DNA of 64,000 bases, taken from IMG/VR virus record IMGVR_UViG_3300045988_069864; one strand, written 5' to 3'. Both the position numbers and the translations under genes were made by a program. Positions 32,726 through 62,901 of the stretch are shown here, one piece after another; position 1 is the stretch's first letter, and every line of letters begins with the position of its first letter. The notes below the pieces were generated by a model that was not told the DNA's origin, made no database searches, and saw nothing but the letters and a program-made list of their open reading frames with translations. This DNA comes from a virus.

Positions 32726-32754
32726 TTCGCGTAAAATGCACCTCTTTTTATGAA
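32726..32754 (+). promoter_or_regulatory. TTCGCG-N17-TATG motif copy 1
   Basis: TTCGCG 32726-32731, 17-nt spacer, TATGAA 32749-32754. The SD follows directly. Precedes the gene at 32769. Confidence 0.5.
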
Positions 32755-32768
32755 AGGAGGCAATAAAT

Positions 32769-33059
32769 ATGTTGCTAAAAACAGTTGCATTCAATGCGGA
32801 ATGCGCTAATTGGACGGACGATATAAAAATCAATGTTGCATTTTTGAAGAATGCTGAACATCATCTGAATACAATTATTCAATACAGAGGATACGTATAT
32901 CTAAATCAGATATATGAACACTTAGGTATCAAGTGGAATCCAGAAGATGAAAACATATGTATCAAAAATGACAACACGGATCAAAATGCGTTCATCGAAT
33001 TTAAGGTGTTTCCAAATTTGAAAAATTCGTTTTTAATTAACATTTATTCCCGCGAATAA
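32769..33059 (+). CDS. Hypothetical protein (moron-like unit next to integrase)
   Basis: 96 aa, bracketed by its own motif copy and its own terminator. Confidence 0.55.
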   Translation: MLLKTVAFNAECANWTDDIKINVAFLKNAEHHLNTIIQYRGYVYLNQIYEHLGIKWNPEDENICIKNDNTDQNAFIEFKVFPNLKNSFLINIYSRE

Positions 33060-33066
33060 GAAAAAG

Positions 33067-33100
33067 AGGCTCTGCCACTATGACAGGGCCTTTTATTTTT
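33067..33100 (+). terminator. Intrinsic terminator
   Basis: AGGCTCTG...CAGGGCCT stem (one G-T pair) followed by TTTTATTTTT. Confidence 0.75.
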
Positions 33101-33203
33101 GCTCGTGTTATTGACCTGAATAAATAAAACTTTTAGAATAATAAGAGAGACGGATGCCATTGCATATTAAGTACATCTACTTTGGAGAAGATTCTCTTAA
33201 TAC

Positions 33204-33238
33204 GCAAAAGAACCCAAGCCAGTGATAGCAAGGGTTCC
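33204..33238 (-). terminator. Terminator-like hairpin downstream of integrase
   Basis: On the minus strand: GGAACCC-loop-GGGTTC followed by TTTTG. The T-run is short. Confidence 0.45.
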
Positions 33239-33247
33239 ACGTATATT

Positions 33248-34705
33248 TTATGCAAATTTCCAGTAGACATGAAGATCTTCTTCGTCTACGACAATCTCTT
33301 TAATCAGCTCTTGTACAAGGGCTTTGATCTCGTCAATATCTCCACTATCAATCACATCACACAAACTCGATGCGATTTCTACAGCTTCTTCTTTTGACAT
33401 CTTCTCTTTATTTTCTAAAGATCTCATGTTAACTTCTAGCTTTTCTTTTTCAGCGAGCAATGCATCGGTTCTACTCTTAATCACATTTATATCTAGAGTT
33501 CCAAGAGTATATAAATCTATCAATTTATCAAGTTGTGAATCTATTTCTTCGATACGTTTGGAGATGACTTTTATTTTCATCGCATTCTCATCGCTTTCGG
33601 TTGAACCAATATCAAACGATTCCGGATGTAATGCAAGTTTACGAACTTCATCAAACACTTCTTTCTCGAGTTCTTCAGCTTTCCAAATTTTATTTTTGCA
33701 ACGTTCTTCTTTGGGTATGTCTTTCCACTTACCAGCACGACAAGATCGTTTGTAGCAATTGCAATACAACTTCGCACTGTTCTTGGTCTTCGCTCGACGG
33801 AAGAAGAACTTATTTCCGCAGTGACCGCAACGTATCATTCCAGCAAGAGGAGCATTAATTCGAGATATACGACTGTTAGCATCTTCGTCACGCTCGGCTA
33901 GTATAGCCTGTGTTTTTTCAAATGTTTCCTTATCTATAATCGGTTTGTGAATTCCTTCGTACCATTCACCTTTATATGATACCATGCCGATATAATGCTT
34001 ATTTTCTAGCAATGGTCTAATATTATGTCGATTCCAGTTTCCATCGTAAGTAGTTCTATACCCCTTTGATTGTAGCATTTCTGCAACTCGTCTTTGCGAT
34101 ATTCTCATGTTGAACAGTCTAAACATTTCTCGAATTTGCATTGCCTCATATTCGTGGACTACGAGTTCATCATTTTCGACTCGATATCCGATAGGTACGT
34201 AACGACTACCACACCATTTTCCTTCTTTGGCTCTACCGATCTTACCAACTTCCATACGCTCTTTTATTTGTTCACGTTCAAGTTGGGCGAAAACACTTAG
34301 AATACCAATCATAGCTCGTCCGAACGGCGTACTCGTATCTAGATTCTCAGTCATACTAATGAAATCTACGTTGTTTGGAAGGAACACGTCCTCGATAAGA
34401 GTCAGTGTATCCTTCTGCGAACGTGAAAGTCGATCGAGTTTATATACTAAAACGGCGTTGACCTTGTTACTTTCTGCATCTTTAATTAAAGACTGTAGTC
34501 CGGGACGATCTGTGTCTGCTCCAGAGTAACCAGCATCTGTGTATATTTTATGAACTACCCAACCTTTAGCTTCACAGTATTTAATCATTCTCTCAGTTTG
34601 TTCATTGATAGAGTATCCATCCTTAGCTTGCTCTAATGTAGATACGCGTGGATATAATGCTACACGCATGGCGTTTCTATTGACCACTCCGTATGTTTCG
34701 CCCAT
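33248..34705 (-). CDS. int: Large serine recombinase (integrase)
   Basis: Resolvase-type N-terminus (YPRVSTLEQ...GYSGA..DRPGL...VLVYKLDRLSRS), a recombinase domain, Cys-rich zinc ribbon (CGHCG...CNCYKRSC) and a C-terminal coiled coil. Confidence 0.9.
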   Translation of the reverse strand: MGETYGVVNRNAMRVALYPRVSTLEQAKDGYSINEQTERMIKYCEAKGWVVHKIYTDAGYSGADTDRPGLQSLIKDAESNKVNAVLVYKLDRLSRSQKDTLTLIEDVFLPNNVDFISMTENLDTSTPFGRAMIGILSVFAQLEREQIKERMEVGKIGRAKEGKWCGSRYVPIGYRVENDELVVHEYEAMQIREMFRLFNMRISQRRVAEMLQSKGYRTTYDGNWNRHNIRPLLENKHYIGMVSYKGEWYEGIHKPIIDKETFEKTQAILAERDEDANSRISRINAPLAGMIRCGHCGNKFFFRRAKTKNSAKLYCNCYKRSCRAGKWKDIPKEERCKNKIWKAEELEKEVFDEVRKLALHPESFDIGSTESDENAMKIKVISKRIEEIDSQLDKLIDLYTLGTLDINVIKSRTDALLAEKEKLEVNMRSLENKEKMSKEEAVEIASSLCDVIDSGDIDEIKALVQELIKEIVVDEEDLHVYWKFA

Positions 34706-34710
34706 TTAAA

Positions 34711-35100
34711 TCATTCCCCTTTATCTAAGATGTCTTTAGCCAATTGTAGAATTTTAATAAGCATATATTTTTCTCGCTCAGTGACTTGCCTCGAGCCGAT
34801 TGTCAGATATTTAGAGTTCTTTACATAATTAATGAAATGATCCAATGAAAACAACAAATTGGTCGTCTTCCCTTCATTTCGTTCTTTAATGTCTGATTTA
34901 CCAATAAGCCAAGCAGGATTCACATTGAGCATAGATGCTATAGTTTCTAAAACTGGCAACTTGATGTCTTTTATTTCTCCATTCTCGTATCTGTGTATTG
35001 TAGCTTTACTCAGTCCTGTATAAGCAGCTACATCCGCAACTGATATATTTAAGGCTTTGCGTTGCTGTCGTATTCGCTTGCCTATTTCCATGTTCTTCAT
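34711..35100 (-). CDS. XRE-family repressor (cI-like)
   Basis: HTH IGKRIRQQRKALNISVADVAAYTGLSKATIHRYENG. Divergent from the early operon, and 5 nt upstream of int on the same strand. Confidence 0.8.
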   Translation of the reverse strand: MKNMEIGKRIRQQRKALNISVADVAAYTGLSKATIHRYENGEIKDIKLPVLETIASMLNVNPAWLIGKSDIKERNEGKTTNLLFSLDHFINYVKNSKYLTIGSRQVTEREKYMLIKILQLAKDILDKGE

Positions 35101-35122
35101 ATATTCACTCCTTCCATGTATA

Positions 35123-35152
35123 ATTATAAGCTAAAAAATTGCGCCATGCGAA
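35123..35152 (-). promoter_or_regulatory. Candidate repressor/integrase promoter: TTCGCA-N18-TATAAT (minus strand)
   Basis: Reverse complement of 35147-35152 is TTCGCA and of 35123-35128 is TATAAT. The SD GGAAGGAG and ATG 35100 lie downstream. Confidence 0.45.
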
Positions 35153-35161
35153 TGATTTGTA

Positions 35162-35172
35162 TGCGTAACGCA
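35162..35172. promoter_or_regulatory. Operator-like palindrome TGCGTAACGCA
   Basis: Perfect 11-bp palindrome in the divergent intergenic region. Shares the GC(G/A)TAACGC core with 35238-35252. Confidence 0.5.
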
Positions 35173-35187
35173 ACTTTCTATGTTATT

Positions 35188-35212
35188 TCAAACTTTTTTC
35201 AAACTTTTTTCA
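35188..35212. repeat. Tandem 11-bp direct repeat TCAAACTTTTT x2 (+TCA)
   Basis: Read directly; lies between the two palindromes. Confidence 0.8.
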
Positions 35213-35237
35213 TAAATTCGAGTTATTATTCTTTTTA

Positions 35238-35252
35238 GTCGCATAACGCGAC
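35238..35252. promoter_or_regulatory. Operator-like palindrome GTCGCATAACGCGAC
   Basis: 15-bp palindrome with one mismatch, 26 nt upstream of the TTG start of the first early gene. Confidence 0.5.
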
Positions 35253-35277
35253 AAAATTTTATAAGGAGTGACGCATT

Positions 35278-35499
35278 TTGATAAACACTAAAGAATTAAA
35301 GAAACTACTTATAGATAAAAATTTGAAAGTTAGCGATATAGCTGTACATATAGAGAAATCATATTCTAGCACAATGCTTAAGATAAACGGTAAATCTTCG
35401 ATGTCGTTAGGAGAAGCAGAGAAGATTCAGTTTCTTTTAGATATAGATGACAATGACTTTTGTTTTTATTTCTTGAGTCATGAGTCCGGGCTATGGTAA
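35278..35499 (+). CDS. Cro-like small DNA-binding protein (first early gene)
   Basis: TTG start 9 nt after AAGGAG. 73 aa with an HTH-like segment (LKVSDIAVHIEKSYSSTMLKING). Divergent from the repressor gene. Confidence 0.5.
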   Translation: MINTKELKKLLIDKNLKVSDIAVHIEKSYSSTMLKINGKSSMSLGEAEKIQFLLDIDDNDFCFYFLSHESGLW

Positions 35500-35607: not shown

Positions 35608-36027
35608 ATGGCAACAGTAATACGAGCGGAACTATCAAAAAGAAATAAGTACTGGGTCGAGAAACACCGATACTACGAATTGAAACATTTTTGCTTGCAA
35701 TATCCAATTTGGAAACGAGCATATTCCGAGATTGAAATGCTAGGTGGGTGTACGTACGATCCAATGATATTTCATAGATCGAGTTCGCCAGGCGACCCAA
35801 CCGGACGACTAGCCGAGAAGCGGATGCTGTACCACGATCGAATGAAACTTGTCGAGCAAACAGCATTAGCCGCCGATTCGGAACTAGCCACTTATATTTT
35901 AAAGGGGGTGACTGAAGAACTAAGTTTTAACATGCTGAAATCAAAGTTGGACATACCGTGTAGTAAAGATACTTACTACGATCGGTACAGAAGATTCTTT
36001 TGGTTATTGGATGAAATAAGAGATTGA
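35608..36027 (+). CDS. RinA/ArpU-like (sigma region-4-like) transcription regulator candidate
   Basis: 139 aa. The YYELKHFCLQYP..K pattern and a C-terminal HTH-like segment (CSKDTYYDRYRRFFWLLDE) resemble phage late activators. Confidence 0.4.
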   Translation: MATVIRAELSKRNKYWVEKHRYYELKHFCLQYPIWKRAYSEIEMLGGCTYDPMIFHRSSSPGDPTGRLAEKRMLYHDRMKLVEQTALAADSELATYILKGVTEELSFNMLKSKLDIPCSKDTYYDRYRRFFWLLDEIRD

Positions 36028-36047
36028 TATTTTAGGAGGAAACAACA

Positions 36048-36194
36048 ATGGAAAACAAAATTCTTAATGCAGTAATGATTGCAGTAGCAGGCGGTATCGT
36101 GGCTAAAGTATTGAAAACAGTAAGAGATAGAAAGATCGAAAAAGAATTATATGATACGGAGGTTGTTTGCGATGAACAATCAGATAAAGAGTAG
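36048..36194 (+). CDS. 48-aa membrane peptide
   Basis: ATG 8 nt after AGGAGGA. TM segment ILNAVMIAVAGGIVAKVL. Below the track's size cutoff. Confidence 0.4.
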   Translation: MENKILNAVMIAVAGGIVAKVLKTVRDRKIEKELYDTEVVCDEQSDKE

Positions 36195-36402
36195 TATTCG
36201 TGCAAAAGCTAGATTAATTTACGGATTACTGAATGTTCTTGAATACGATATTGATAATCTTCGTTCAGATGTAAACACTTGCGAAGTTGCTAGTTTGATG
36301 AAAACCATCCAAGATACTAACATGACACTTGAAAACCTAATCGATATTGTAGCTGAGATCGAATACTTATTATATTTACATAATGCAGAGGAGTCCCTAT
36401 AG
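36172..36402 (+). CDS. Hypothetical 76-aa protein
   Basis: ATG 36172 lies 9 nt after GGAGG. Overlaps the end of the 48-aa ORF. Confidence 0.45.
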   Translation: MNNQIKSSIRAKARLIYGLLNVLEYDIDNLRSDVNTCEVASLMKTIQDTNMTLENLIDIVAEIEYLLYLHNAEESL

Positions 36403-36414: not shown

Positions 36415-36443
36415 TTCGCGCGAAAAGCATGTTCATTTATGAA
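36415..36443 (+). promoter_or_regulatory. TTCGCG-N17-TATG motif copy 2
   Basis: TTCGCG 36415-36420 and TATGAA 36438-36443. Heads ORF-less unit A. Confidence 0.5.
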
Positions 36444-36544
36444 GAGAGAACAAAAGTGAACATTAGAAAGACAAATTTATAAGATGCGACCGTCTATGCC
36501 TTCGCAAGAAGGAGGGAACACATATCGCACTCTCTTTTCATTTT
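36441..36544 (+). ncRNA. ORF-less transcription unit A (candidate ~100-nt RNA)
   Basis: No SD-preceded ORF. The 5' GAAGAGAGA (36441-36449) pairs with CTCTCTTTTC (36530-36539), which precedes ATTTT. There is an internal CCTTC-GCAA-GAAGG hairpin. Confidence 0.3.
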
Positions 36545-36571
36545 CGCGAAAAAAACTTGTTCCTTTATGCA
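36543..36571 (+). promoter_or_regulatory. TTCGCG-N17-TATG motif copy 3
   Basis: TTCGCG 36543-36548 (inside the palindrome TTTTCGCGAAAA) and TATGCA 36566-36571. Confidence 0.5.
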
Positions 36572-36597
36572 AATAAAACTTTTAGGAGGAATTTATT

Positions 36598-36750
36598 ATG
36601 ATGCCTGTAGGAGCTAAAATTGTGTCGAATATTGCTATTGGAATTATTTATATATGCACGATTCCAGTTGTAGTTACGACAATCAAAGCTGTCATTGCAG
36701 AAATCAAAAATATTCTTAGCGAAGAAGCATTTGACGACGAGGAGAGCTGA
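36598..36750 (+). CDS. 50-aa membrane peptide
   Basis: ATG after TAGGAGGA. TM segment IVSNIAIGIIYICTIPVVVTTI and an acidic tail. Confidence 0.5.
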   Translation: MMPVGAKIVSNIAIGIIYICTIPVVVTTIKAVIAEIKNILSEEAFDDEES

Positions 36751-36767
36751 GCAAGCTCTTCTTTTTT
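36743..36767 (+). terminator. Intrinsic terminator
   Basis: AGAGCT-GAGCA-AGCTCT followed by TCTTTTTT. Confidence 0.7.
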
Positions 36768-36769
36768 AT

Positions 36770-36798
36770 TTCGCGTAGAAAACATCCTCCTTTATGCA
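36770..36798 (+). promoter_or_regulatory. TTCGCG-N17-TATG motif copy 4
   Basis: TTCGCG 36770-36775 and TATGCA 36793-36798. The downstream leader is nearly identical to that of copy 3 (AATAAAACTTTTAGGAGG). Confidence 0.5.
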
Positions 36799-36825
36799 GA
36801 ATAAAACTTTTAGGAGGTATTTATT

Positions 36826-37207: not shown

Positions 37208-37423
37208 ATGGATTACATAATTCTCTTTGTTGTCTGTATCTTGGTTAATATTGCGATCAACATTATATTTTTCGATCATAAACCATCCGGAACCCTTCGA
37301 ATCGATCATTCTAATCCTGAGAAAGATATCTATCGTTTTGAAATAAACGATTTTGATGCACTGTCCAAGAAAAAGCGAATCGTCATCAATGTGGATAACA
37401 ATGCTTATCTTTCGCAAGAGTAG
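37208..37423 (+). CDS. 71-aa membrane protein
   Basis: ATG 37208 follows AAAGGAGGTGGG. N-terminal TM segment IILFVVCILVNIAINIIFF. Confidence 0.55.
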   Translation: MDYIILFVVCILVNIAINIIFFDHKPSGTLRIDHSNPEKDIYRFEINDFDALSKKKRIVINVDNNAYLSQE

Positions 37424-37439
37424 CATGCACTATTATGGA
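37411..37439 (+). promoter_or_regulatory. TTCGCG-N17-TATG motif copy 5 (TTCGCA / TATGGA)
   Basis: TTCGCA 37411-37416 overlaps the last codons of the upstream gene. TATGGA is at 37434-37439. Confidence 0.4.
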
Positions 37440-37474
37440 ACGTAAGTTCACATATTTGAAAGGAGTAGTTATTT

Positions 37475-37903: not shown

Positions 37904-37932
37904 TTCGCGAAATTTACAGCGTGTATTATGAG
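37904..37932 (+). promoter_or_regulatory. TTCGCG-N17-TATG motif copy 6
   Basis: TTCGCG 37904-37909 and TATGAG 37927-37932. Heads ORF-less unit D. Confidence 0.5.
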
Positions 37933-38080
37933 AGAAAGCAATGGATAAATGCTGGTGGAAATCCAGCGGTGAGACACGAAGGCGGTGCGCCAAGTAATAA
38001 CTTAATAAAAGATGCACCCTACCGGGCAACGGTTTTCGTTGGGCCGACCCTGAAGTCATTACTTTCTCTCTTTTATTTTT
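37930..38080 (+). ncRNA. ORF-less unit D (candidate ~150-nt structured RNA or terminator-containing leader of gene 38109)
   Basis: The 5' GAGAGAAAG (37930-37938) is the perfect complement of CTTTCTCTC (38062-38070), which precedes TTTTATTTTT. Internal hairpins are GCTGG..CCAGC, GGCG-GTG-CGCC and CGGGCAACG..CGTTGGGCCG. Confidence 0.35.
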
Positions 38081-38108: not shown

Positions 38109-38850
38109 ATGAGATTACGTCCCAGGCTTAGAAAGATTCATTAAAAAGAATGGAGCAACTATTCTAACTGGTATCGGGGTCACCGGAGTTGTGGCTACTT
38201 CAGTTTTAGTCGGTAAAGCTACATTCAAAGCTTCCGAAATTTTAGAAGAAACCAAGAAAGAAAAAGGTGGAAAACTGGAAACTATGGAAGCCGTTAAACT
38301 TGTAGCTCCGGTTTATATTCCGTCAATCGTAATGGGCGCATCTACTATTGCTTGTATTCTTGGTGCGAACGTACTGAACAGACATCATCAAGCAGCTTTA
38401 ACTAGTGCGTATGCGTTTGTTGATCAATCTTTCAAAGAGTACAAAGCAAAAGTTACTGAATTGTATGGTGAAGAAGCCGATCAAGCAGTAGAAGAGGCAA
38501 TCGAGCAAGATCATGTTTCAGGAGAAAACGATCTTCAATTATTCTATGATGAATTATCAGACCGATATTTTGAATCTACGCCATACAGAGTCCAAAGAGC
38601 AGAATACGAGTTGAATAGAAATATGCTTAAGCGAGACTATGCATACTTGAATGAATGGTATGAAGAATTAGACCTAGACATCGTAGAGAACGGCTATGCT
38701 TTAGGTTGGTCTACATTCCAATGTATGGAAATGTACTGGCAACCATGGATTGACTTCGATCACTATTCATTCACCACTGAAGATGGTCGAGAATGTATGG
38801 GACTTTGCATTATCCAACAACCGATCTTAGATTTTGAGGATTATTGCTAA
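38109..38850 (+). CDS. TM-anchored paralog A (family of 3); needs a +1 shift at CCC-AGG-C (38121-38127), or is a pseudogene
   Basis: ATG 38109 lies 7 nt after AAGGAGAGG, and the zero frame stops at 38144. The +1 frame from 38113 encodes GLERFIKKNGATILTGIGVTGVV, which aligns with paralogs B and C. Confidence 0.5.
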
Positions 38851-38879
38851 TTCGCGATAGAAACTCCTTCTTTAATGAA
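38851..38879 (+). promoter_or_regulatory. TTCGCG-N17-TATG motif copy 7 (AATGAA)
   Basis: TTCGCG 38851-38856 starts 1 nt after the stop of the upstream gene. AATGAA is at 38874-38879. Confidence 0.45.
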
Positions 38880-38903
38880 AGATATTTAAAGGAGGAACCT
38901 ACT

Positions 38904-39625: not shown

Positions 39626-39654
39626 TTCGCGATGAAAACATTTTCCTTTATGAG
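39626..39654 (+). promoter_or_regulatory. TTCGCG-N17-TATG motif copy 8
   Basis: TTCGCG 39626-39631 starts 2 nt after the upstream stop. TATGAG is at 39649-39654. Confidence 0.5.
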
Positions 39655-39685
39655 AAAATAAACTTTCTGAAAAGGAGAAAGGAAT

Positions 39686-39910
39686 ATGTTTGACATTATG
39701 CAAATCAAAACTAAATTCATGAGAGGCATGATCGCAAAATTGATCGGAATAGCAATTAAGAACAAATTGGGCTGTAAGATTAAAGTCCAATTTGACGATA
39801 TTGATATTCGCATCGATGACGAGATTGCTCACGTACATGTGAACGGTGGATTTGACATGAAAGTCGACGATCTAAAAAAGTTCACAAAGTTTATCGACGA
39901 AGAGGACTGA
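39686..39910 (+). CDS. Hypothetical 74-aa protein
   Basis: SD AAAGGAG, 74 aa. Confidence 0.55.
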   Translation: MFDIMQIKTKFMRGMIAKLIGIAIKNKLGCKIKVQFDDIDIRIDDEIAHVHVNGGFDMKVDDLKKFTKFIDEED

Positions 39911-39937
39911 GCTAGCAATAGCTCTTCCTTTTGATAT
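39909..39937 (+). terminator. Intrinsic terminator
   Basis: GAGCTA-GCAA-TAGCTC (GNRA loop) followed by TTCCTTTTGATATTT. Confidence 0.65.
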
Positions 39938-39966
39938 TTCGCAAAAATTACAAGCTGTATTATGAG
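39938..39966 (+). promoter_or_regulatory. TTCGCG-N17-TATG motif copy 9 (TTCGCA)
   Basis: TTCGCA 39938-39943 and TATGAG 39961-39966. The SD (AAAGGAGG) follows immediately. Confidence 0.45.
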
Positions 39967-39983
39967 AAAGGAGGTAATGCTTT

Positions 39984-40187: not shown

Positions 40188-40961
40188 ATGAACGCATCAA
40201 TCGTAACTAATTTTATCAAAAGCATTAGAAGTACCGCGACTAAGCATAGTCCTGAAATTCTCACTGGCATCGGCATTGCTGGTATGGTTACTACTACCGT
40301 ATTGGCTGTACGAGCTACTCCGAAAGCTATGACGCTCATCGAGGATAAGAAAGAGGAATTGAAAACCGAAAAATTGCCGGTGATAGAAACCGTAAAAACA
40401 ACGTGGAAATGCTATATTCCGGCGGTTATCACTGGTGCTCTTTCTGTTTCTTGTCTTGTAGGCGCAAGTGCGACTAACCTGAAACGTAATGCAGCTCTTG
40501 CTACTGCATATAAACTGTCTGAAACAGCTCTTAGTGAGTATAAGGACGCAGTAGTTGAGACTATTGGCGAGAAAAAGATGCAGGACGTTAAAGATAAAGT
40601 TGCTGAAAAACAGCTTGAGAGAAGTTCTGCTACTAGATCTGACGTGATTGTTGAGGGTAAGGGTACTACACTTTGCTGCGAAGGTTTCACTGGCAGACGT
40701 TTCTATTGCGATATGGACACATTGAAGAAAGCTGAGAACGAACTCAACCGTAATATTATTAACAACATGTATCAATCTTTGAATGATTTCTACGATTTAC
40801 TTGGGGTTGAATACAGTGAAATGGGTGACGAACTTGGCTGGAATCTTGATAGCGGGACAATTGAATTAAGTTTTAGTTCTCAGCTTACTAGTGATGGTCG
40901 TCCTTGCCTTGTTTATGACTTTAATCATGCCCCGGAGTATAACTTTTCCAACTTTCTATGA
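40188..40961 (+). CDS. TM-anchored paralog B (unknown function)
   Basis: 257 aa with an N-terminal TM segment (ILTGIGIAGMVTTTVLAV). Blocks shared with A and C: RNAALA.AY....EY...V.E..G and LN..Y..LG.....G..LGW. Confidence 0.65.
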   Translation: MNASIVTNFIKSIRSTATKHSPEILTGIGIAGMVTTTVLAVRATPKAMTLIEDKKEELKTEKLPVIETVKTTWKCYIPAVITGALSVSCLVGASATNLKRNAALATAYKLSETALSEYKDAVVETIGEKKMQDVKDKVAEKQLERSSATRSDVIVEGKGTTLCCEGFTGRRFYCDMDTLKKAENELNRNIINNMYQSLNDFYDLLGVEYSEMGDELGWNLDSGTIELSFSSQLTSDGRPCLVYDFNHAPEYNFSNFL

Positions 40962-40994: not shown

Positions 40995-41023
40995 TCCGCG
41001 AAATTTGCAAGTTATTTTATGAG
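40995..41023 (+). promoter_or_regulatory. TTCGCG-N17-TATG motif copy 10 (TCCGCG)
   Basis: TCCGCG 40995-41000 and TATGAG 41018-41023. Confidence 0.45.
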
Positions 41024-41065
41024 AAGCAGATAGCTTCCGTTATATTTCGAAAGGAGTAATTAATC

Positions 41066-41338
41066 ATGAGTGAAAATGTTGAAATGAATGCAGTTGAGGT
41101 CAAGGAAACTGTCGAAACCAAAAAGAACTTTGGTTCCAAACTTATCGATGGCATCAAGGAGCATAAGAAGGAAATCGCAGGTATTGCGGTGACCGCCGTA
41201 TGCAGCTATGCCGCATATAAGTATGGTGTCAAGGTCGGACTTAAAAAGATCGACGTTAAACCTGTCATCGAAGCTGTAGCTGACACTGACATTGGCGACG
41301 TGGTTGAGGACGTTATTGAAGACACAACGGAAATCTGA
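41066..41338 (+). CDS. Hypothetical 90-aa protein with central TM helix and acidic tail
   Basis: SD GAAAGGAG, TM segment IAGIAVTAVCSYAAY. Confidence 0.55.
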   Translation: MSENVEMNAVEVKETVETKKNFGSKLIDGIKEHKKEIAGIAVTAVCSYAAYKYGVKVGLKKIDVKPVIEAVADTDIGDVVEDVIEDTTEI

Positions 41339-42584: not shown

Positions 42585-43511
42585 ATGAAATTCAATGATA
42601 TTATGGCGAGTGCATCTCGTACGTTCAGCAAGGTAAGTCTGCAGGGCAAGAAGTATGCACCCGAGGTTATGATTGTTGTCGGTGTCGTTGGTGTTGTAGC
42701 CAGTGCTGTTATGGCATGCAAAGCCACTACTAAGGCCGGTGCTATTGTAGAAGATACCAAGGATCAGATGGATCAGATCCATGAAGTAGCTGAAACTCAT
42801 GCTGAGGAATATTCTGAAGACGATATGAAGAAAGACACTGTCATCGTCTACACTCAGACTGCTGTCAAATTCGCAAAACTGTACGGTCCAGCGGTTATTC
42901 TTGGCGCTGCTTCTATCGCATGCATCCTTGGTTCTCATCATATTTTGAGTAAACGTAATGCTGCTTTGGCTGCTGCTTACGCAACTGTGGATAAAGGATT
43001 TAAAGAATACCGTGGTCGTGTAATCGAGCGTTTCGGCAGGGAACTCGATAAAGAACTTCGCTATAATGTCAAGGCGAAAGACTTTGAGGAAACTGTAGTC
43101 AACGAAGAAACCGGTGAAGAGACTAAAGTTACGAACACTGTAAACGTAGCTGATCCTAATGATTATAGTGACTATGCTCGTTTCTTTGATGATGGATGCA
43201 CTGGTTGGACCAAGGATTCTGAGCAGAATTTATATTTCCTGAAATGTCAGCAGAACTATGCTAATGAGCGTCTTCAGAAAAAAGGCTATTTGTTCCTGAA
43301 TGATGTGTATGAAATGCTTGGTATTCCTAAGACCAAGGCTGGTCAGATTGTTGGTTGGATCTATGACAAGAAGAATCCTGTAGGCGACAACTTTGTAGAT
43401 TTCGGCATTTACAACATGAACCGTGAGAAAGCTCGCGACTTTGTTAACGGTTATGAACGCACTATCCTGCTTGACTTCAATGTCGATGGTAATATTCTCG
43501 ACTTGATCTAA
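42585..43511 (+). CDS. TM-anchored paralog C (unknown function)
   Basis: 308 aa with an N-terminal TM segment (VMIVVGVVGVVASAVMA) and the same conserved blocks as paralogs A and B. Confidence 0.65.
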   Translation: MKFNDIMASASRTFSKVSLQGKKYAPEVMIVVGVVGVVASAVMACKATTKAGAIVEDTKDQMDQIHEVAETHAEEYSEDDMKKDTVIVYTQTAVKFAKLYGPAVILGAASIACILGSHHILSKRNAALAAAYATVDKGFKEYRGRVIERFGRELDKELRYNVKAKDFEETVVNEETGEETKVTNTVNVADPNDYSDYARFFDDGCTGWTKDSEQNLYFLKCQQNYANERLQKKGYLFLNDVYEMLGIPKTKAGQIVGWIYDKKNPVGDNFVDFGIYNMNREKARDFVNGYERTILLDFNVDGNILDLI

Positions 43512-49461: not shown

Positions 49462-49490
49462 TTCGCTAATTTTGCATGTCATATTATGAA
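49462..49490 (+). promoter_or_regulatory. TTCGCG-N17-TATG motif copy 11 (TTCGCT)
   Basis: TTCGCT 49462-49467 starts 1 nt after the replicase stop. TATGAA is at 49485-49490 and the SD follows directly. Confidence 0.45.
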
Positions 49491-49504
49491 AGGAGTGATT
49501 CTAA

Positions 49505-50538: not shown

Positions 50539-50567
50539 ATCGCGAATCCTACTTCTTCTTTAATGAA
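50539..50567 (+). promoter_or_regulatory. TTCGCG-N17-TATG motif copy 12 (ATCGCG / AATGAA)
   Basis: ATCGCG 50539-50544 starts 1 nt after the upstream stop. AATGAA is at 50562-50567 and the SD follows directly. Confidence 0.4.
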
Positions 50568-50581
50568 GGAGGTTGATATTT

Positions 50582-50826: not shown

Positions 50827-50901
50827 GGGCCATTAGCTTAAGGGTAAAGCTGGCAGCTCATAACTGCTTGAGTGCGGGTTCGAATCCTGCATGGCCCACC
50901 A
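50827..50901 (+). tRNA. tRNA with anticodon CAT (elongator Met or Ile2-type), CCA encoded
   Basis: Hand fold: 7-bp acceptor stem (GGGCCAT/ATGGCCC), 4-bp D stem, anticodon stem GGCAG/CTGCT with loop CTCATAA, 5-nt variable loop, T arm GCGGG-TTCGAAT-CCTGC, then ACCA. Confidence 0.85.
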
Positions 50902-51876: not shown

Positions 51877-52071
51877 ATGAAAACTGCAAACTGGTATCGA
51901 CATCGATTGGCTAAATACACTGAGGATCATTATGGTAGATATTCGGATGAGATTGAGTTCTTTCCAGATCCGGATATTAATCAATGGAAATTCAAAATTC
52001 CATCTCTCAATCTCGTAGTGGTGTTGGTTTGTCTGGATAGCGGAAATATTAATGAATTTTCATTGTTTTAA
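51877..52071 (+). CDS. Hypothetical 64-aa protein
   Basis: ATG 51877 follows GGGAGA. The track ORF starts further upstream, inside the previous gene. Confidence 0.45.
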   Translation: MKTANWYRHRLAKYTEDHYGRYSDEIEFFPDPDINQWKFKIPSLNLVVVLVCLDSGNINEFSLF

Positions 52072-52098
52072 CGCGGCCTAAACAAGCCCCTTTATGAA
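52070..52098 (+). promoter_or_regulatory. TTCGCG-N17-TATG motif copy 13 (AACGCG)
   Basis: AACGCG 52070-52075 overlaps the upstream stop. TATGAA is at 52093-52098 and the SD follows directly. Confidence 0.4.
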
Positions 52099-52111
52099 AG
52101 GAGTGGTTTAA

Positions 52112-58246: not shown

Positions 58247-58455
58247 TATTTTCCTGTAATCGGTTCGCTCTTTTTCCACGTATGTGTTCCGAATGCAAAC
58301 GTTATATTTGGATGGAACCTTATAGAAGATCAGACGTTTGGCATGGAGGTTTTGTCGATAGATATTTTAAGGGGGATTACAAGAAAGAAAACATTTGTAA
58401 GAAATGTCTACCTAAATTCTTACCAAAAACTGAGCAAGACACAACCGCGATATAA
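58243..58455 (+). CDS. Hypothetical 70-aa protein (CSEC...CKKC)
   Basis: ATGA overlap with the upstream gene. Confidence 0.5.
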   Translation: MIFSCNRFALFPRMCSECKRYIWMEPYRRSDVWHGGFVDRYFKGDYKKENICKKCLPKFLPKTEQDTTAI

Positions 58456-58472
58456 ACCGATCCTTTAATGAA
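58444..58472 (+). promoter_or_regulatory. TTCGCG-N17-TATG motif copy 14 (ACCGCG / AATGAA)
   Basis: ACCGCG 58444-58449 overlaps the last codons of the upstream gene. AATGAA is at 58467-58472 and the SD follows directly. Confidence 0.4.
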
Positions 58473-58487
58473 AGGAGTTGATTTAAC

Positions 58488-58814
58488 ATGACTATTAGAG
58501 ATTGGCTGAAGAAACCGGTAAGGACATACACCTGTTCTGATGGATCGTATGAAATCCAAGAGAATCGACCGAGATTGTACTGTAATGATGGATATTCCAT
58601 TTCGGTACAAGCCAGCAGCTTTCATTACTGTAAACCGAGACTTAATGGGATACGGGACTATGAAAGCGTTGAGCTTGGTTTTCCGAGTACGGAAGATGAA
58701 CTCATTAACGAGTATGCCGAGAATGATTCGATTTACACGCAAACCGTTTATGGTTATGTGCCTATCGAAATTATTGAAAAACTTATCAACAAGCATGGAG
58801 GAATAAAAGCTTAA
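58488..58814 (+). CDS. Hypothetical 108-aa protein
   Basis: SD AAAGGAG. Confidence 0.55.
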   Translation: MTIRDWLKKPVRTYTCSDGSYEIQENRPRLYCNDGYSISVQASSFHYCKPRLNGIRDYESVELGFPSTEDELINEYAENDSIYTQTVYGYVPIEIIEKLINKHGGIKA

Positions 58815-59464: not shown

Positions 59465-59493
59465 CACGCGAGAATTACATATCGTATTATGAG
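59465..59493 (+). promoter_or_regulatory. TTCGCG-N17-TATG motif copy 15 (CACGCG)
   Basis: CACGCG 59465-59470 and TATGAG 59488-59493. Heads ORF-less unit L. Confidence 0.45.
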
Positions 59494-59600
59494 AGAAAAG
59501 AGAATCATGTATTGGTGATGACCTTTGCCCGGTGTGTAAGGGGAATTGTACATTATTACAACAATACAGTAGAACTCGCACTTTTCTCTTTTATTTTTTT
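59491..59600 (+). ncRNA. ORF-less unit L (candidate ~110-nt RNA or terminator-containing leader)
   Basis: The 5' GAGAGAAAAG (59491-59500) pairs with CTTTTCTCTT (59581-59590), which runs into TTTTATTTTTTT. Only 9-aa or shorter ORFs have any start signal. Confidence 0.3.
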
Positions 59601-60083: not shown

Positions 60084-60107
60084 TATTTGAGGATAAGGAG
60101 TCTAATT

Positions 60108-60185
60108 ATGAACGAACAGAAATTCATTGAGGAAATGCTTCTAAATATGAATGAACAGAAATTCACTGAGGAAACGCTTCATACG
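60108..60185 (+). repeat. Tandem 39-nt duplication (2 units) at the 5' end of the gene
   Basis: 60108-60146 against 60147-60185 differ at a few positions. Confidence 0.8.
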
Positions 60186-60491
60186 ATGCTTTATTTTTTT
60201 GAAAATCGTAAGAACAAAGAAATTAGCGATCTTGCAGACGAATATTTCGAACATGACATGAGACTGGATGATTTTATTCTTAAGGCACAAGCGATTGTCG
60301 ATAAGCTTGAGTATGTAGAGACTATCGTCAAAAAGATATACCATGGACTGAATCCGAGCGACAGACTTTATGTTTCTTGTCCTAAGTGCGGTGCGTTTAT
60401 GACTTATGATGGCGAGCTCGAAGAATGTTTTTGCCCAGTTTGCAATTTTCATGCAAGGGTAGACACGCGAGGAGGTAAAGCTAATGATTGA
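60108..60491 (+). CDS. Hypothetical 127-aa protein with C-terminal zinc ribbon and a duplicated N-terminus
   Basis: ATG 60108 follows AAGGAG. N-terminus MNEQKFIEEMLLN/MNEQKFTEETLHT, and Cys pairs CPKCG...CPVC. Confidence 0.55.
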   Translation: MNEQKFIEEMLLNMNEQKFTEETLHTMLYFFENRKNKEISDLADEYFEHDMRLDDFILKAQAIVDKLEYVETIVKKIYHGLNPSDRLYVSCPKCGAFMTYDGELEECFCPVCNFHARVDTRGGKAND

Positions 60492-60732
60492 ACGAACAGT
60501 AACTATTAGTGGCAGAGAAGAGGACGTTGCTACTGTACTTAGGCTCCTTAAACATATGGAGTATCTTGGAAATGTTGGAGTAAGCAGAAATCTCCTTGTA
60601 TGGGTCGACGGAGACGGCTGTGGTCAGATTCATGTAATGGACAAAAGCGGAGAGAAGCTAGATAATGTCCATTATAGCATAGAGCAGATCCCTACTATGG
60701 GTGCTGTTGCTGGCATTTACGATATCGGTTGA
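60484..60732 (+). CDS. Hypothetical 82-aa protein
   Basis: ATG overlaps the upstream end. The gene is flanked by the 39-nt repeat pair 60432-60470 / 60748-60786. Confidence 0.55.
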   Translation: MIERTVTISGREEDVATVLRLLKHMEYLGNVGVSRNLLVWVDGDGCGQIHVMDKSGEKLDNVHYSIEQIPTMGAVAGIYDIG

Positions 60733-60747
60733 AAAGAAAACAACAAT

Positions 60748-60786
60748 TGCCCAGTTTGCGATTTTCAAGGAAGAGTAGACACGCGA
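60748..60786 (+). repeat. Second copy of the 3' end of gene 60108 (start-less CPVC..RVDTR remnant)
   Basis: TGCCCAGTTTGC.ATTTTCA........TAGACACGCGA matches 60432-60470 at about 31 of 39 positions. There is no start codon in frame. Confidence 0.7.
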
Positions 60787-60819
60787 CTTGGTATTGTACG
60801 TATAGACGAAAAGGAGTGA

Positions 60820-60955
60820 ATGAAATATTTTATGCCCTAAATGCCAAAAAGCCGAAATGAATTATTATAAAATTCCGTATGATGGATGGATTTATATTTA
60901 CAGGTCTTGTCCAGCATGCGGGTTTTATATTAGTAAAGGAATTCGTAATTTATGA
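60820..60955 (+). pseudogene. Small zinc-ribbon gene with a disrupted or non-canonical 5' end
   Basis: The ATG 60820 frame stops after 6 codons. The +1 frame reads LCPKCQKAEMNYYKIPYDGWIYIYRSCPACGF.. to TGA at 60955. An ATT at 60827, 10 nt after GGAG, is an alternative start. Confidence 0.35.
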
Positions 60956-60977
60956 AAATTAAAAGGTGGTGTGTCAA

Positions 60978-61286
60978 ATGGATGTAGCCGATGCAAACTC
61001 TCTGTACACATTGAAAGTAATTGCATTGATATTCATTGGATGTCCTGCTCTTATGCTCACCGGTGCTTTTCTGCTATGGCCCGAGATTTGGGTAGCATCG
61101 CATATTTATAGTGAGATCAATAAGCGATTGCGAAAAGTTATTCGATGCAAGGACTGTCGGTATCGCAACGAAGAAGGCTGTCCGTTGAAAGGTAATTGTA
61201 CAGACTATGATTTCTGCTCAAAAGGAGAAGAAATTCCTTTAAAGCAATATGGTACGGCTTACGAAAATGAGGAGGACAACGCATGA
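60978..61286 (+). CDS. Hypothetical 102-aa protein, N-terminal TM helix and Cys-rich C-terminal part
   Basis: ATG 60978 follows AAGGTGG. TM segment VIALIFIGCPALMLTGAFLLW and Cys pattern CKDC...C...C...C. Confidence 0.55.
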   Translation: MDVADANSLYTLKVIALIFIGCPALMLTGAFLLWPEIWVASHIYSEINKRLRKVIRCKDCRYRNEEGCPLKGNCTDYDFCSKGEEIPLKQYGTAYENEEDNA

Positions 61287-61450
61287 CTAATCCGTGCGAT
61301 AAATGCAAGCACACTGACGTTTGTAAATACAAAGAAGAACTTAATAATTGTTTGAACGACATTGACAAAATTGCACACGGCGATTTCATAACAATTAAAG
61401 TCGAATGTATTTATAGAGATAATATTTTCACTGCGAAAAGAGGTATGTAA
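61283..61450 (+). CDS. 55-aa Cys-rich protein
   Basis: ATGA overlap with the upstream gene. Cys pattern CDKCKHTDVC...C. Below the track cutoff. Confidence 0.4.
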   Translation: MTNPCDKCKHTDVCKYKEELNNCLNDIDKIAHGDFITIKVECIYRDNIFTAKRGM

Positions 61451-61453
61451 ACG

Positions 61454-61639
61454 ATGGTTATACCGGTTATTCTTATCTGTTTTGCTGCAGGGTTCATTTG
61501 GTTACTAACATTGGGATCGGTCGGTAGTAATCTTGATAGACACAAATCTGATGCTATATGGCCATGCGTTGCGATGCTTTTCTGCTCTGCTTTAGTCTGT
61601 CTAACTCTGATTAAATTTAGTTTCAGTTTTTTACTATAA
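61454..61639 (+). CDS. 61-aa two-TM membrane protein
   Basis: TM segments VIPVILICFAAGFIWLLTL and PCVAMLFCSALVCLTLI. Confidence 0.5.
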   Translation: MVIPVILICFAAGFIWLLTLGSVGSNLDRHKSDAIWPCVAMLFCSALVCLTLIKFSFSFLL

Positions 61640-61657
61640 ATAAAAGAGGTATAAATT

Positions 61658-61984
61658 ATGAATTTCTTCGCAATTGTCTCCGCTTTCATCATTGGCGGTA
61701 CTGTTGGATATTTTTACTGCGGACTCACGACTGGCGCCAAGAATGAGAATCTTGATCAAGAAACTACTAGTGAGGATATTAATATTATTGCGCGTTGCGA
61801 TAAACGAATCAAAGAATATGAAAAGACAGTTGAAAAGTACAAACAGATTATCGAAAACGACAATAAAAACATTCAGTATCTTCGTACATTGTTTATGAAA
61901 GCTTGCAAAATGGGCAACATTGATCCATTGACGGTTGATATTTGTGAAGAGACGGATAAAGCCGATAAGGAGGCAACTAAATGA
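61658..61984 (+). CDS. Hypothetical 108-aa protein, N-terminal TM helix + coiled coil
   Basis: SD AAGAGG, TM segment FFAIVSAFIIGGTVGYFY. Confidence 0.55.
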   Translation: MNFFAIVSAFIIGGTVGYFYCGLTTGAKNENLDQETTSEDINIIARCDKRIKEYEKTVEKYKQIIENDNKNIQYLRTLFMKACKMGNIDPLTVDICEETDKADKEATK

Positions 61985-62196
61985 GTCCGATTCAAGGAAA
62001 CAAAAACGAACGCGGAAGAAACTCATCCGGATATTCTGATCCGACTATGACAGAGGCGGTCGATAAGGCCACTAAAGACCGTAAGCGAATGGAGAAGCTT
62101 GTGAAGACCATCTATTATATTTGTGAGATGGCAGGTTTCGAAGTTGGCGAACGGATTATATTAGTTGATAAAACCACAGGCAAGATTTGGAGGTAA
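61981..62196 (+). CDS. Hypothetical 71-aa protein
   Basis: ATGA overlap with the upstream gene. Carries a YSDPTMTEAV motif that I recall from small proteins of Firmicutes mobile elements. Confidence 0.5.
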   Translation: MSPIQGNKNERGRNSSGYSDPTMTEAVDKATKDRKRMEKLVKTIYYICEMAGFEVGERIILVDKTTGKIWR

Positions 62197-62202
62197 TATA
62201 TT

Positions 62203-62535
62203 ATGAATATGTTCGATTATCAGTACGCAGCAGCTCGTAGCATCAATTATGATCTGACCGATGCAGAGAAAGGTAAACACGCACTTCACGGTATGGTGGC
62301 AGAAATTGGCGAACTCCACTCGATCTATCAGAAACGGTATCAGGGTCATCCGTTCAATGAGGAGCATGCTAAAAAAGAGCTAGGCGACCTGATATGGTTC
62401 ATTGCCGAGTATTGCACTGCTCACAACTGGGACCTTAATGATATTTGCCAAATGAATATTGACAAGCTCAAAGCTCGCTATCCCGATGGTTTCGAGGTTG
62501 ATAAGAGTCTGCATCGTGCTGAGGGTGATATTTGA
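62203..62535 (+). CDS. MazG-like nucleoside triphosphate pyrophosphohydrolase
   Basis: HGMVAEIGELHSIYQK...ELGDLIWFIAEYC...NIDKLKARYP has the EXXE...E..D MazG helix pattern. Confidence 0.7.
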   Translation: MNMFDYQYAAARSINYDLTDAEKGKHALHGMVAEIGELHSIYQKRYQGHPFNEEHAKKELGDLIWFIAEYCTAHNWDLNDICQMNIDKLKARYPDGFEVDKSLHRAEGDI

Positions 62536-62870
62536 TGAAAGCTCATGTTGGAAAAAATGGCATAGCACCGTGGGTTTTGGATGAAGCTGTAGCAGAAGCT
62601 ATGAAACAAATTGATATTCAGTCTAATGAAATTAGTGCTCGTTGCTACAATGAGATGACGATTGCAATGGATCAGGCTGGATTTTCCAAAGATGATATTT
62701 GCAAAGTACATAAAGTGTTGAACGATGTAATCTTGCCTAAGATCAAGTCTGTCCGTGACGATGGGTATGCTAAGAACAAAGATGACAACTCGCAGGAGAT
62801 CTCCGACAGTGATATTTGGATGCAGATGTATTGTGAGAGTCATGATTTGCCTTATTTGGAGTGCGAATGA
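62532..62870 (+). CDS. Hypothetical 112-aa protein
   Basis: ATGA overlap with the upstream gene. Clean ORF. Confidence 0.55.
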   Translation: MMKAHVGKNGIAPWVLDEAVAEAMKQIDIQSNEISARCYNEMTIAMDQAGFSKDDICKVHKVLNDVILPKIKSVRDDGYAKNKDDNSQEISDSDIWMQMYCESHDLPYLECE

Positions 62871-62872
62871 TA

Positions 62873-62901
62873 ATCGCTAAATAAACACGTGCTGTTATGG
62901 A
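62873..62901 (+). promoter_or_regulatory. TTCGCG-N17-TATG motif copy 16 (ATCGCT / TATGGA)
   Basis: ATCGCT 62873-62878 and TATGGA 62896-62901. The spacer AAATAAAC.. fits the family. This is the most degenerate copy. Confidence 0.35.

Follow-up and report, generated by a model that had tools for sequence, protein, structure and literature searches.

A Tripartite, Strand-Locked Promoter-Like Element in the Early Region of a Human Gut Phage and Its Association With a Conserved Phage Polymerase

Introduction

Among the systems closest to the one studied here are phages that encode RNA polymerases of their own. The non-virion two-barrel polymerase of phage phiKZ uses TATG promoters in which the G is position +1 of the transcript (PMC4666361). 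For YonO, the polymerase of phage SPbeta, the promoter was left undefined in 2017 (PMC5467207), and no description of the promoter of YonO-type polymerases after that year was found in the searchable literature. In this study, we analysed the IMG/VR virus record IMGVR_UViG_3300045988_069864, a stretch of 64,000 nucleotides (hereafter the window, to which all positions refer), in which an earlier note had described 16 copies of a promoter-like motif, TTCGCG-N17-TATG followed by purines, in the early region of the genome. Targeted literature searches found no published description of this motif, and neither it nor the promoters of the polymerase are mentioned in the papers that describe Faecalibacterium phage FP_oengus and the phages of Arthrobacter cluster AM.

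Results

Occurrence and Architecture of the Element

All 16 reported copies were confirmed directly in the window at the same coordinates, every one on the plus strand. A scan of both strands with the original degenerate pattern returned 16 matches on the plus strand and none on the minus strand, and a pattern of nine invariant bases (CGC-N8-C-N8-T-N-ATG) recovered just the 16 known sites. By chance, the nine-base pattern occurred 1.3 ± 1.2 times over both strands of dinucleotide-preserving shuffles, and a count of 16 was reached in 0 of 100. The distance between the upstream hexamer and TATG was also specific, with 11 matches at N17 and 0–4 at each other spacing from 10 to 25. With a 30-nt weight matrix, the sites scored 17.8–33 bits when each was left out in turn, compared with 10.8 bits (plus strand) and 15.7 bits (minus strand) for the top non-sites. 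No further site was detected in the window, and the matrix found zero sites in 1–32,725, in line with the reported exclusion of the motif from the late operon. Against shuffled controls and the opposite strand, the enrichment and the strand lock were therefore borne out, and the copy number was corrected from 16 to 18 per genome. Contigs with identical proteins showed that the window covers almost the entire phage genome (roughly 65.4 kb, human gut), cut within the polymerase gene. The missing 1,345 bp contains two extra copies (L018 11187 and 11290), of which one precedes a unit without an open reading frame (ORF) and the other precedes an operon of an endonuclease, an exonuclease and a 982-amino-acid (aa) polymerase. 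At the DNA level, megablast detected no close phage relative and blastn gave a single weak match.

The element is tripartite, and consists of tTCGCR, AAAwTTACA and, after 5 bases, T-w-T-T-A-T, followed by a G and purines. Among 413 distinct copies from gut phages, the consensus was t-t-C-G-C-R-a-a-A-a-t-t-A-C-A-n-n-y-y-C-T-w-T-T-A-T-G-R-A-A, and the three blocks were phased 10 bp apart, which corresponds to one helical turn. The WWW(A/G)C block described previously is real, although it is merely part of the longer, strongly conserved AAAwTTACA. The proposed 6-17-6 layout was mis-framed. The -10-like hexamer occupies positions 20–25, 3 nt upstream of the TATGAR frame, so that TTCGCR is located 14 nt from it rather than 17 nt, and TTTACA 5 bp from it. 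This hexamer reads TwTTAT in the window phage and TATAAT or TATAGT in relatives; in divergent gut lineages it is TATAAT, with position 26 sometimes an A. The TATAAT of the relatives at positions 20–25 therefore reveals the 3-nt offset of the earlier frame. The second base of the hexamer was A in 48% of the 413 copies and the sixth was T in 99%, while TTATG was followed by purines and its G was present at 98%. Five of the 16 window copies have a hexamer that begins with TA.

The motif family extended to about 160 related gut-phage loci, in which over 500 distinct copies were found, confined to the gene strand and missing from late operons. Two sets of loci were used. The first comprised 80 IMG/VR loci (1.25 Mb) chosen via homologues of a 139-aa protein (53–99% identity), and gave 644 motif matches on the gene strand and 1 on the opposite strand. 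The second comprised 80 loci chosen via homologues of the polymerase (41–99% identity), most of which had a motif copy 0.9–1.2 kb upstream of the polymerase start. The weight-matrix score of this upstream match exceeded 10 in 76 of 78 scannable loci and 14 in 67 of 80. Where sequence was available, the 3-kb flanks 3' of the polymerase gene contained no copy, except for one weak match in two near-identical loci.

Conservation Across Host Phyla

Homologues of the polymerase were identified in 251 INPHARED records, with hosts including Arthrobacter, Gordonia, Streptomyces, Rhodococcus, Microbacterium, Curtobacterium, Lactococcus and Faecalibacterium. Among listed phage genomes whose sequence begins at the left end, the polymerase gene is located at the right end of the genome. 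Four cultured phages, namely FP_oengus, Cheesy, Scap1 and P162, all carry at this position a homologue of about 980 aa with ADFDGD and a fused helix-turn-helix (HTH) domain.

The nearest cultured relative is FP_oengus (Oengusvirus; Firmicutes), with 13–14 motif copies, all on the gene strand. It shares with the window phage the order of the integrase, the 139-aa gene, the DUF6353 genes, a 1,338-aa DNA polymerase, the endo/exonuclease, the polymerase and the late operon, but differs in protein identity (41–75%) and in block 1, which is GACGCG. In Arthrobacter phage Cheesy (Actinobacteria), the 38.7 kb that were read contain 8 full copies on the plus strand and 0 on the minus strand (e.g., ATCGCGTAAATTACAAGGGGTATAATAGAAG), one of which heads the polymerase operon, 938 nt upstream of the polymerase match and 950 nt upstream of the annotated start. 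Streptomyces phage Scap1 (Actinobacteria) has TTCGCAAGTTTTACAnGCnTTATAGTGAG in 6 copies, where 0.29 would be expected, and every copy comes after a terminator. Its complete genome has no copies in the late half, and a variant copy was seen by eye before the polymerase operon. In Lactococcus phage P162 (Firmicutes), 12–14 copies of GTTTTACAyrCCCTATAATGAAAGG were found, which retain blocks 2 and 3 only; one of them is directly followed by a tRNA-like unit (L190 2241–2350). As hexamer, Cheesy and P162 both have a perfect TATAAT, and Scap1 mostly has TATAGT. The promoter may be almost unchanged between phages of Actinobacteria and Firmicutes. Since the motif has been inherited with the polymerase backbone across two phyla with differing sigma preferences, a conserved phage protein would be the simplest reader, with the HTH-bearing polymerase as the obvious candidate.

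Promoter Context and Promoter Classes

The early plus-strand region is organised as repeated units, each made of a motif copy, one or more genes or an RNA, and an optional terminator. Largely as claimed previously, the copies follow terminators or lie within 0–3 nt of stop codons. They precede Shine-Dalgarno (SD) sequences or ORF-less RNA units, and additional cassettes found in other strains carry a copy of their own. The late operon of 29 kb comes after the polymerase gene in the window and is followed by the lysis genes, then by a serine recombinase and a CI-like repressor gene on the minus strand and a cro-like gene on the plus strand. The intergenic region between the CI-like and cro-like genes holds divergent sigma-70-type promoters. 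A promoter-type element is supported by this arrangement, in which the motif is orientation-locked, sits at terminator and cassette boundaries, heads both ORFs and ORF-less units and is excluded from the late operon.

The individual copies, all on the plus strand, illustrate this grammar. Copy 1 (32726–32755), behind the terminator of the late operon, heads the gene of a 96-aa DUF6353 fragment, whose SD lies 3 nt past the G. Copies 4 (36770–36799) and 9 (39938–39967) likewise follow terminators, at 36739–36763 and 39909–39924, and head a 66-aa and a 48-aa gene, the SD of the latter again 3 nt past the G. Several copies adjoin the end of the preceding gene. Copies 11 (49462–49491) and 12 (50539–50568) begin at the base following a stop codon, that of the DNA polymerase gene in the case of copy 11; downstream of copy 12 is a tRNA gene of the early region, 50827–50898 (Rfam, 64 bits). 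Copy 7 (38851–38880) begins 1 nt past the stop of the DUF6353 gene 38191–38850, copy 8 (39626–39655) 2 nt past a stop codon and ahead of a 74-aa gene, and copy 16 (62873–62902) 3 nt past a stop codon and ahead of a 113-aa gene. Copy 13 (52070–52099), which heads a 93-aa gene, overlaps a stop codon, and copy 5 (37411–37440), which heads a 127-aa gene, overlaps the 3' end of the gene 37208–37423. A 50-aa gene (36598–36750), a 90-aa gene (41066–41338) and a 108-aa gene (58488–58814) are headed by copies 3 (36543–36572), 10 (40995–41024) and 14 (58444–58473), respectively. The three ORF-less units reported for the copies at 36415, 37904 and 59465 do exist. Copy 2 (36415–36444) heads a unit of about 100 nt (36441–36541) whose 5' GAAGAGAG pairs with CTCTCTTT ahead of a T-run, copy 6 (37904–37933) heads a conserved structured non-coding RNA (ncRNA) at about 37930–38080, and copy 15 (59465–59494) heads a unit of about 105 nt (59491–59599) whose first 10 nt pair with CTTTTCTCTT, again followed by a T-run. 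The early region contains four dispersed DUF6353 paralogues, including a short fragment (32769–33059, 38191–38850, 40188–40961 and 42585–43511), and the same multiplicity was observed in FP_oengus.

The view that the element is not a standard sigma-A promoter was upheld, as no -35 box occurs at 17 ± 1 bp and the second base of the hexamer is A in about half of the copies. Given a hexamer at positions 20–25, the -35 slot (positions -3 to 2) is of low information content, and a generic sigma-70 scan of the window recovered no motif copy. The sigma-54, extracytoplasmic function (ECF), sporulation-sigma, TcdR-type and SPO1 gp28/gp34 consensuses were rejected by eye on their spacing.

A different promoter class serves the immediate-early operon. 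TTCATA-17-TATAAT at 35096–35124 on the plus strand is a canonical sigma-70-type promoter that precedes the cro-like gene, the gene of the 139-aa protein at 35608 and two small genes, and it represents the sole sigma-70-type promoter class on the plus strand of the early region. A canonical promoter, not the motif, precedes the 139-aa operon in the window and in two related loci (L014 and L016), and such promoters were found before this operon in nearly all of 70 loci (e.g., TTnACn-17/18-TAGAAT and TTGACA-18-TATCTT). The density of sigma-70-like sites (at least 10/12) was 1.19 per kb at the switch and immediate-early operon vs. 0.21 per kb over the next 5 kb. A motif copy upstream of the 139-aa operon in L014 and L016 was an apparent objection; it drives its own small gene and terminator, and the canonical promoter follows. 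Before the polymerase operon, no positionally conserved sigma-70-type promoter was found, and a slight excess of such sites just upstream of the gene corresponds to a conserved coding motif. In one metagenomic variant (L012), the region matching 33.1–35.5 kb of the window is without the recombinase, CI-like and cro-like genes, while the 139-aa operon and all motif copies are kept; L012 may be a virulent deletion derivative.

Transcription Start and ORF-less RNAs

Initiation at the G of TATG, as put forward earlier, fits the positions of the SDs and of the RNA helices, which bear on it indirectly, the onset of the helices being partly forced by composition. The six window copies with an SD close to TATG (32726, 39938, 49462, 50539, 52070 and 58444) are real, with an offset of 2–4 nt in place of the reported 1–3 nt. 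In about 20% of over 400 distinct copies, an SD 4-mer begins at positions 28–32, i.e., 2–6 nt past the G, and nearly none occur from there to position 38. Of 119 SD-proximal copies, 23 lie directly behind an intrinsic terminator; as these are insulated, their sole promoter must place the SD inside the transcript. Many genes without the motif share (T)ATATTTGAAAGGAG upstream of their start, as observed in 25 upstream regions (e.g., 37460, 43565, 45200 and 52455). TGAAAGGAG is a general extended ribosome-binding context in the window phage, which accounts for some of the purines behind TATG in the six copies with a nearby SD.

In the ORF-less units, a helix starts at the G and closes on a pyrimidine run ahead of the T-run. 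The unit at 37904 encodes a conserved RNA of about 130–150 nt (37930–38080) with paired 5' and 3' ends. Compensatory changes were detected in 8 of its 37 pairs, some within the closing helix, which runs from G/A26–27, and matched indels keep the helix anchored at this G/A. Comparable units are located at 36441–36541, 59491–59599 and, just beyond the window end, L018 11213–11280; no Rfam family was matched by the ORF-less RNAs. In about 60 divergent loci, a hairpin resembling a terminator begins at position 26 in the leader of the polymerase operon. At L018 11316–11350, this hairpin and its T-run lie right behind the motif, and the sequences differ across the approximately 60 loci. The leader hairpin is likely to be an attenuator controlling polymerase expression. 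Units of P162 and Cheesy followed the same start-near-G pattern, and in a survey of 501 copies the onset of the helix peaked at position 26 (63 copies). Taken together, an RNA start within about 2 nt of the G appears likely.

Candidate Readers

The first candidate is the polymerase-like protein encoded on the plus strand at 1–2787, which corresponds to residues 54–982, i.e., the C-terminal 929 of 982 aa; motif copy 18 heads its operon. The protein matches phrog_4291, 'RNA-dependent RNA polymerase', with E = 0. Its beta'-type ADFDGD (1459–1476; residues 541–546) is collinear with FDNDGD at residues 535–539 of YonO, and its C-terminal HTH (approximately 2659–2775) is an HTH_38 domain, matched in one homologue by Pfam Sigma70_r4 models as well. 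No match was found among PDB sequences. HTH-like segments near the N-terminus were noticed by eye, and homologues carry the RefSeq or SEA-PHAGES labels 'RNA-dependent RNA polymerase' or 'helix-turn-helix DNA-binding domain protein'. Behind the polymerase gene lies a gene of about 84 aa (2784–3038, plus strand), an order seen in each of the five phages that were directly read; its product is a possible polymerase partner. The candidacy of the phage polymerase was strengthened, in that the motif travels with it across two host phyla; recognition of the promoter by it is a prediction from sequence.

The second candidate proposed earlier, the product of the gene at 35608–36027 (plus strand), is an all-helical immediate-early protein of 139 aa that belongs to an orphan family. 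The gene is universal in the gut lineage, immediate-early, and placed behind the canonical sigma-70-type promoter. As a reader, its product was weakened, because the family is undetectable in the motif-keeping Arthrobacter and Lactococcus relatives and tblastn found it in no Streptomyces phage. The hidden Markov model (HMM) of the family matched the window (1.8e-59) and FP_oengus (2.4e-45), but not the 38.7 kb of Cheesy or the 33.6 kb of P162 that were read; in Scap1, tblastn did not detect it. The family occurs in just 4 INPHARED records, which represent three phages. Searches of Pfam, NCBIfam and PHROGs gave no annotated family, Pfam being negative for 62 diverse members as well, and nothing was found by a PDB profile search or by Foldseek against PDB. 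An identity as a sigma or RinA-like factor was rejected (hhalign against phi11 RinA, probability 0.3%). In a Foldseek search of BFVD, the model of the protein showed weak likeness (E 0.07–2) to small phage proteins labelled sigma-70 region 4, ECF sigma, DUF1492 or transcriptional activator.

In MT835477 (L187), an 85-kb human faecal scaffold without motif copies and without a polymerase homologue, a 35%-identical homologue of the 139-aa protein is encoded at 35992–36363, between genes that by translation appear to be those of the terminase large subunit and the portal. The 139-aa family is therefore not bound to the motif everywhere. Two further records were uninformative for co-occurrence, both being truncated prophages with host flank: MT835485, with the motif and the 139-aa gene and no polymerase found, and MT835495, with the polymerase and almost no motif copies.

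Other Non-Coding Regions

Between the gene of about 84 aa and the first late gene (3039–3375), a late leader is conserved in 17 loci. A large number of public contigs stop near 3096 (CACATC|GCC), after a GGGGGGGG...CACCCCCTCC inverted repeat, and this position is therefore probably a cos end; the same end sequence is also found at the right ends of Cheesy and P162. After the cos-like end, a conserved block GGCGGTCTTT-ATTTTCTCCGGAGGGATTTTT-GAAAA is followed by a long stem, whose arms vary between phages yet remain complementary around an invariant, anti-SD-like TCTCCTTTC. The 'ATCGC' of the late leader was rejected as a block 1 and treated as a packaging feature, since it is located at this contig-terminating cos end.

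Upstream of a 131-aa HTH_3 gene is a 440-nt non-coding region (63278–63718) with direct repeats ...CACAAAAAATTATTACTATATA..., each making a sigma-70-like TTGACT-16-TATATA, a palindrome TTATTACTATATAGTAATAA present twice, and many GTGGCC/GTGGGC boxes. Cheesy has a similar GTGGCC-box region upstream of its polymerase operon (L191 34462–34899). The region of the window may be a replication origin or a second regulatory switch.

Discussion

The motif, its statistics, its genomic grammar and its co-inheritance with the polymerase across phyla were observed in the sequences themselves. From these comparisons we infer that it functions as a promoter, where RNA starts and which protein reads it. The motif quite probably represents a promoter class dependent on phage-encoded machinery. 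The leading explanation, that the machinery is the phage polymerase of about 980 aa, is in our judgement an evenly balanced proposition. It is a more tentative suggestion, on the doubtful side of even, that the motif is the promoter of a widespread family of single-chain, beta/beta'-like phage RNA polymerases which would dispense with sigma through docking by fused HTH domains. This family, annotated as 'RNA-dependent RNA polymerase' or 'HTH DNA-binding protein', is encoded by over 250 siphoviruses in culture and by gut-phage contigs numbering in the thousands. In the proposed mechanism, the conserved single-chain polymerase with its ADFDGD catalytic motif would be the reader; its fused HTH domains would dock on the two upstream blocks, TTCGCR and TTACA, the AT-rich hexamer would melt, and RNA synthesis would begin at or just past the invariant G. 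The motif heads every early or middle transcription unit, namely the small cassettes, the structured ncRNAs, the replication genes and the polymerase operon, while the host sigma-A holoenzyme would fire only the canonical promoters of the repressor/immediate-early switch. The first polymerase molecules would be supplied by the host enzyme, which may use the motif weakly, read through into the operon or be helped by an immediate-early protein.

Several observations weigh against the polymerase as the reader. The polymerase operon itself lies behind a motif copy (76 of 78 loci with a score above 10), and given that no conserved sigma-70-type promoter precedes it, a temperate phage would need another source of the first enzyme. 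The SPbeta polymerase transcribes the late operon only, from a single start site (PMC5467207), and the late operon of the window phage has its own conserved and distinct upstream block and leader, which fits a polymerase dedicated to late genes. The label 'YonO-like' given to the protein found no support in sequence comparison, where the similarity is not significant (BLASTP E = 0.12; hhalign probability 0.9%), with two short collinear matches only, one of which is the catalytic DxDGD. The AlphaFold model of the polymerase, with a predicted local distance difference test (pLDDT) score of 50, was too poor to use or search with. The perfect TATAAT of Cheesy and P162 and the mostly TATAGT hexamer of Scap1 resemble a housekeeping -10 box, which suits host RNA polymerase (RNAP) with a phage activator. 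Finally, the peak of helix onset at position 26 is partly forced by the T25/purine-run composition, and a start about 6 nt further downstream is possible.

The main alternative, which we consider unlikely, is that host RNAP is redirected by a phage factor with the logic of T4 middle promoters. Sigma-A would read positions 20–25 as a -10 box, and a phage protein bound to TTCGCR/TTACA would replace the -35 contact; RNA would start approximately 6–7 nt past the hexamer, and the factor would be the 139-aa protein in the gut lineage and an analogue elsewhere. The phage polymerase, expressed from a motif promoter, would then transcribe the late operon. Three promoter classes (canonical sigma-70-type immediate-early, motif and distinct late leader) would correspond to a three-tier cascade, in which the 139-aa gene always comes first or second behind the canonical promoter and the first motif copy comes after it. 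The motif dependence of the polymerase operon would solve the bootstrapping problem and match the division of labour in SPbeta. The TATAAT or TATAGT hexamer of the three non-gut lineages, found in divergent gut lineages as well, is also in keeping with a -10 box, and the G after the hexamer fits the discriminator contact of sigma region 1.2; against this, about half of the gut-phage copies have a base other than A at the second hexamer position. The weak fold likeness of the 139-aa model to small phage proteins annotated as sigma-like or as activators (Foldseek E 0.07–2) speaks for the factor. Against it, the family is without a Pfam, NCBIfam, PDB or RinA link, it was found by neither HMM nor tblastn in Cheesy and P162, which keep the motif, nor by tblastn in any Streptomyces phage, its 35%-identical homologue occurs in a scaffold without the motif, and no conserved activator was identified outside the gut lineage. 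In addition, with a start 6–7 nt past the hexamer, about 20% of the units, including terminator-insulated ones, would have their SD truncated or lost, and the conserved ncRNA helices would lack their 5' arm.

A second alternative is that the copies are weak, ordinary sigma-A promoters with an embedded operator for a master repressor, as SPBRE is for MrpR, and this we regard as very unlikely. Ten early promoters of SPbeta share a repeated element of 15–26 bp bound by MrpR (PMC10516654). In the phages analysed here, TTCGCGAA is almost palindromic, and the promoter of the CI-like gene begins with TTCGCA. However, the dyad is not conserved (position 5 is G/A in 49/45%, vs. 99% for its partner C2), and SPBRE promoters retain the canonical TAGACA-17-TATAAT boxes that the motif copies do not have. 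The motif is unchanged where the CI-like gene is missing or other integrase modules are used (L012, L014 and L016), as well as in phages without an annotated integrase or repressor, i.e., Cheesy and P162 (parts read) and Scap1 (entire genome). Slightly less likely still is an element acting on RNA or elongation, such as an RNA-processing site, an operator of translation or a roadblock of the 'stoperator' type: the strict orientation, the many copies that adjoin an SD or start, and a pyrimidine tract (16–22) able to pair with the downstream purine run or SD would suit it, and the stoperators of Cluster A mycobacteriophages are likewise oriented and intergenic, but many copies lie right behind strong terminators, where no upstream transcript is expected, the ORF-less units require their own promoter, three 10-bp-phased blocks and an AT-rich hexamer are features of DNA recognition, and no consensus RNA fold spans the invariant bases. 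The small share of probability that is left falls to other explanations.

The motif provides a concrete 30-bp candidate, with dozens of natural variants, for the promoter of YonO-type single-chain two-barrel polymerases. Its presence in cultured carriers, i.e., the Arthrobacter cluster AM phages, Scap1, P162 and FP_oengus, makes the question testable. Oengus-like phages are among the most prevalent human-gut groups, Oengus having been reported in up to 40% of virome samples, and their early units and ncRNA genes can now be annotated from sequence alone. If a single polypeptide with its own promoter recognition reads the motif, the two could provide a compact orthogonal expression system usable across Gram-positive phyla; if instead host RNAP is redirected, the motif would represent a new case of sigma appropriation, conserved across phyla.

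Comparison With Known Systems

Among the described systems, the promoters of the phiKZ non-virion RNA polymerase (nvRNAP) resemble the motif in having T-A-T-G at or next to the start (for the motif, the putative start), followed by transcribed purines. The phiKZ middle promoters also have an A/T-rich upstream TTAC block (AAanTTACc), and in both phages the reader or candidate reader is encoded by the phage and related to two-barrel polymerases of the beta/beta' kind. The systems differ in that nvRNAP has five subunits and comes from a lytic jumbo phage, in contrast to the single polypeptide of about 980 aa, which contains fused HTH domains, and in that the upstream block of phiKZ is centred at -24 and belongs to a separate promoter class. 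The motif has an additional CGC block and a full AT hexamer.

SPbeta shares with the window phage a repeated element common to many early promoters, and a single-chain non-canonical polymerase gene located just before a long late operon with a non-coding leader. Its SPBRE (ACAAATACAAAwAATATGTATA within TAGACA-17-TATAAT) is unrelated to the motif, and after reading ten SPbeta SPBRE promoters, whose sequences are unrelated, we rejected an identity of the two. The degenerate pattern of the earlier note was not found in SPbeta, where the best weight-matrix score of 14 equals background. The YonO start is not precisely mappable to the SPbeta sequence, and no similarity to the motif was seen in the gap concerned.

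If the hexamer is a -10 box, the T4 middle promoters are comparable, as TTCGCR would be centred near -30 in place of a -35 box, and both classes are switched on after an immediate-early phase. MotA/AsiA homologues were not found, the second base of the hexamer is often not A, and, unlike the T4 promoters, the motif has a second upstream block (TTACA) and is conserved across host phyla. Stoperators share the single orientation and intergenic location, whereas the motif is a 30-bp, tripartite element kept in phages without an annotated repressor.

T7-type promoters are, like the motif, long (23–30 bp), repeated many times in one orientation and conserved up to the start (for the motif, the putative one), with an AT-rich stretch, a G start and a purine-rich initial transcript. 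The T7 polymerase belongs to an unrelated family, and its gene lies behind host promoters, whereas the polymerase gene here lies behind the motif.

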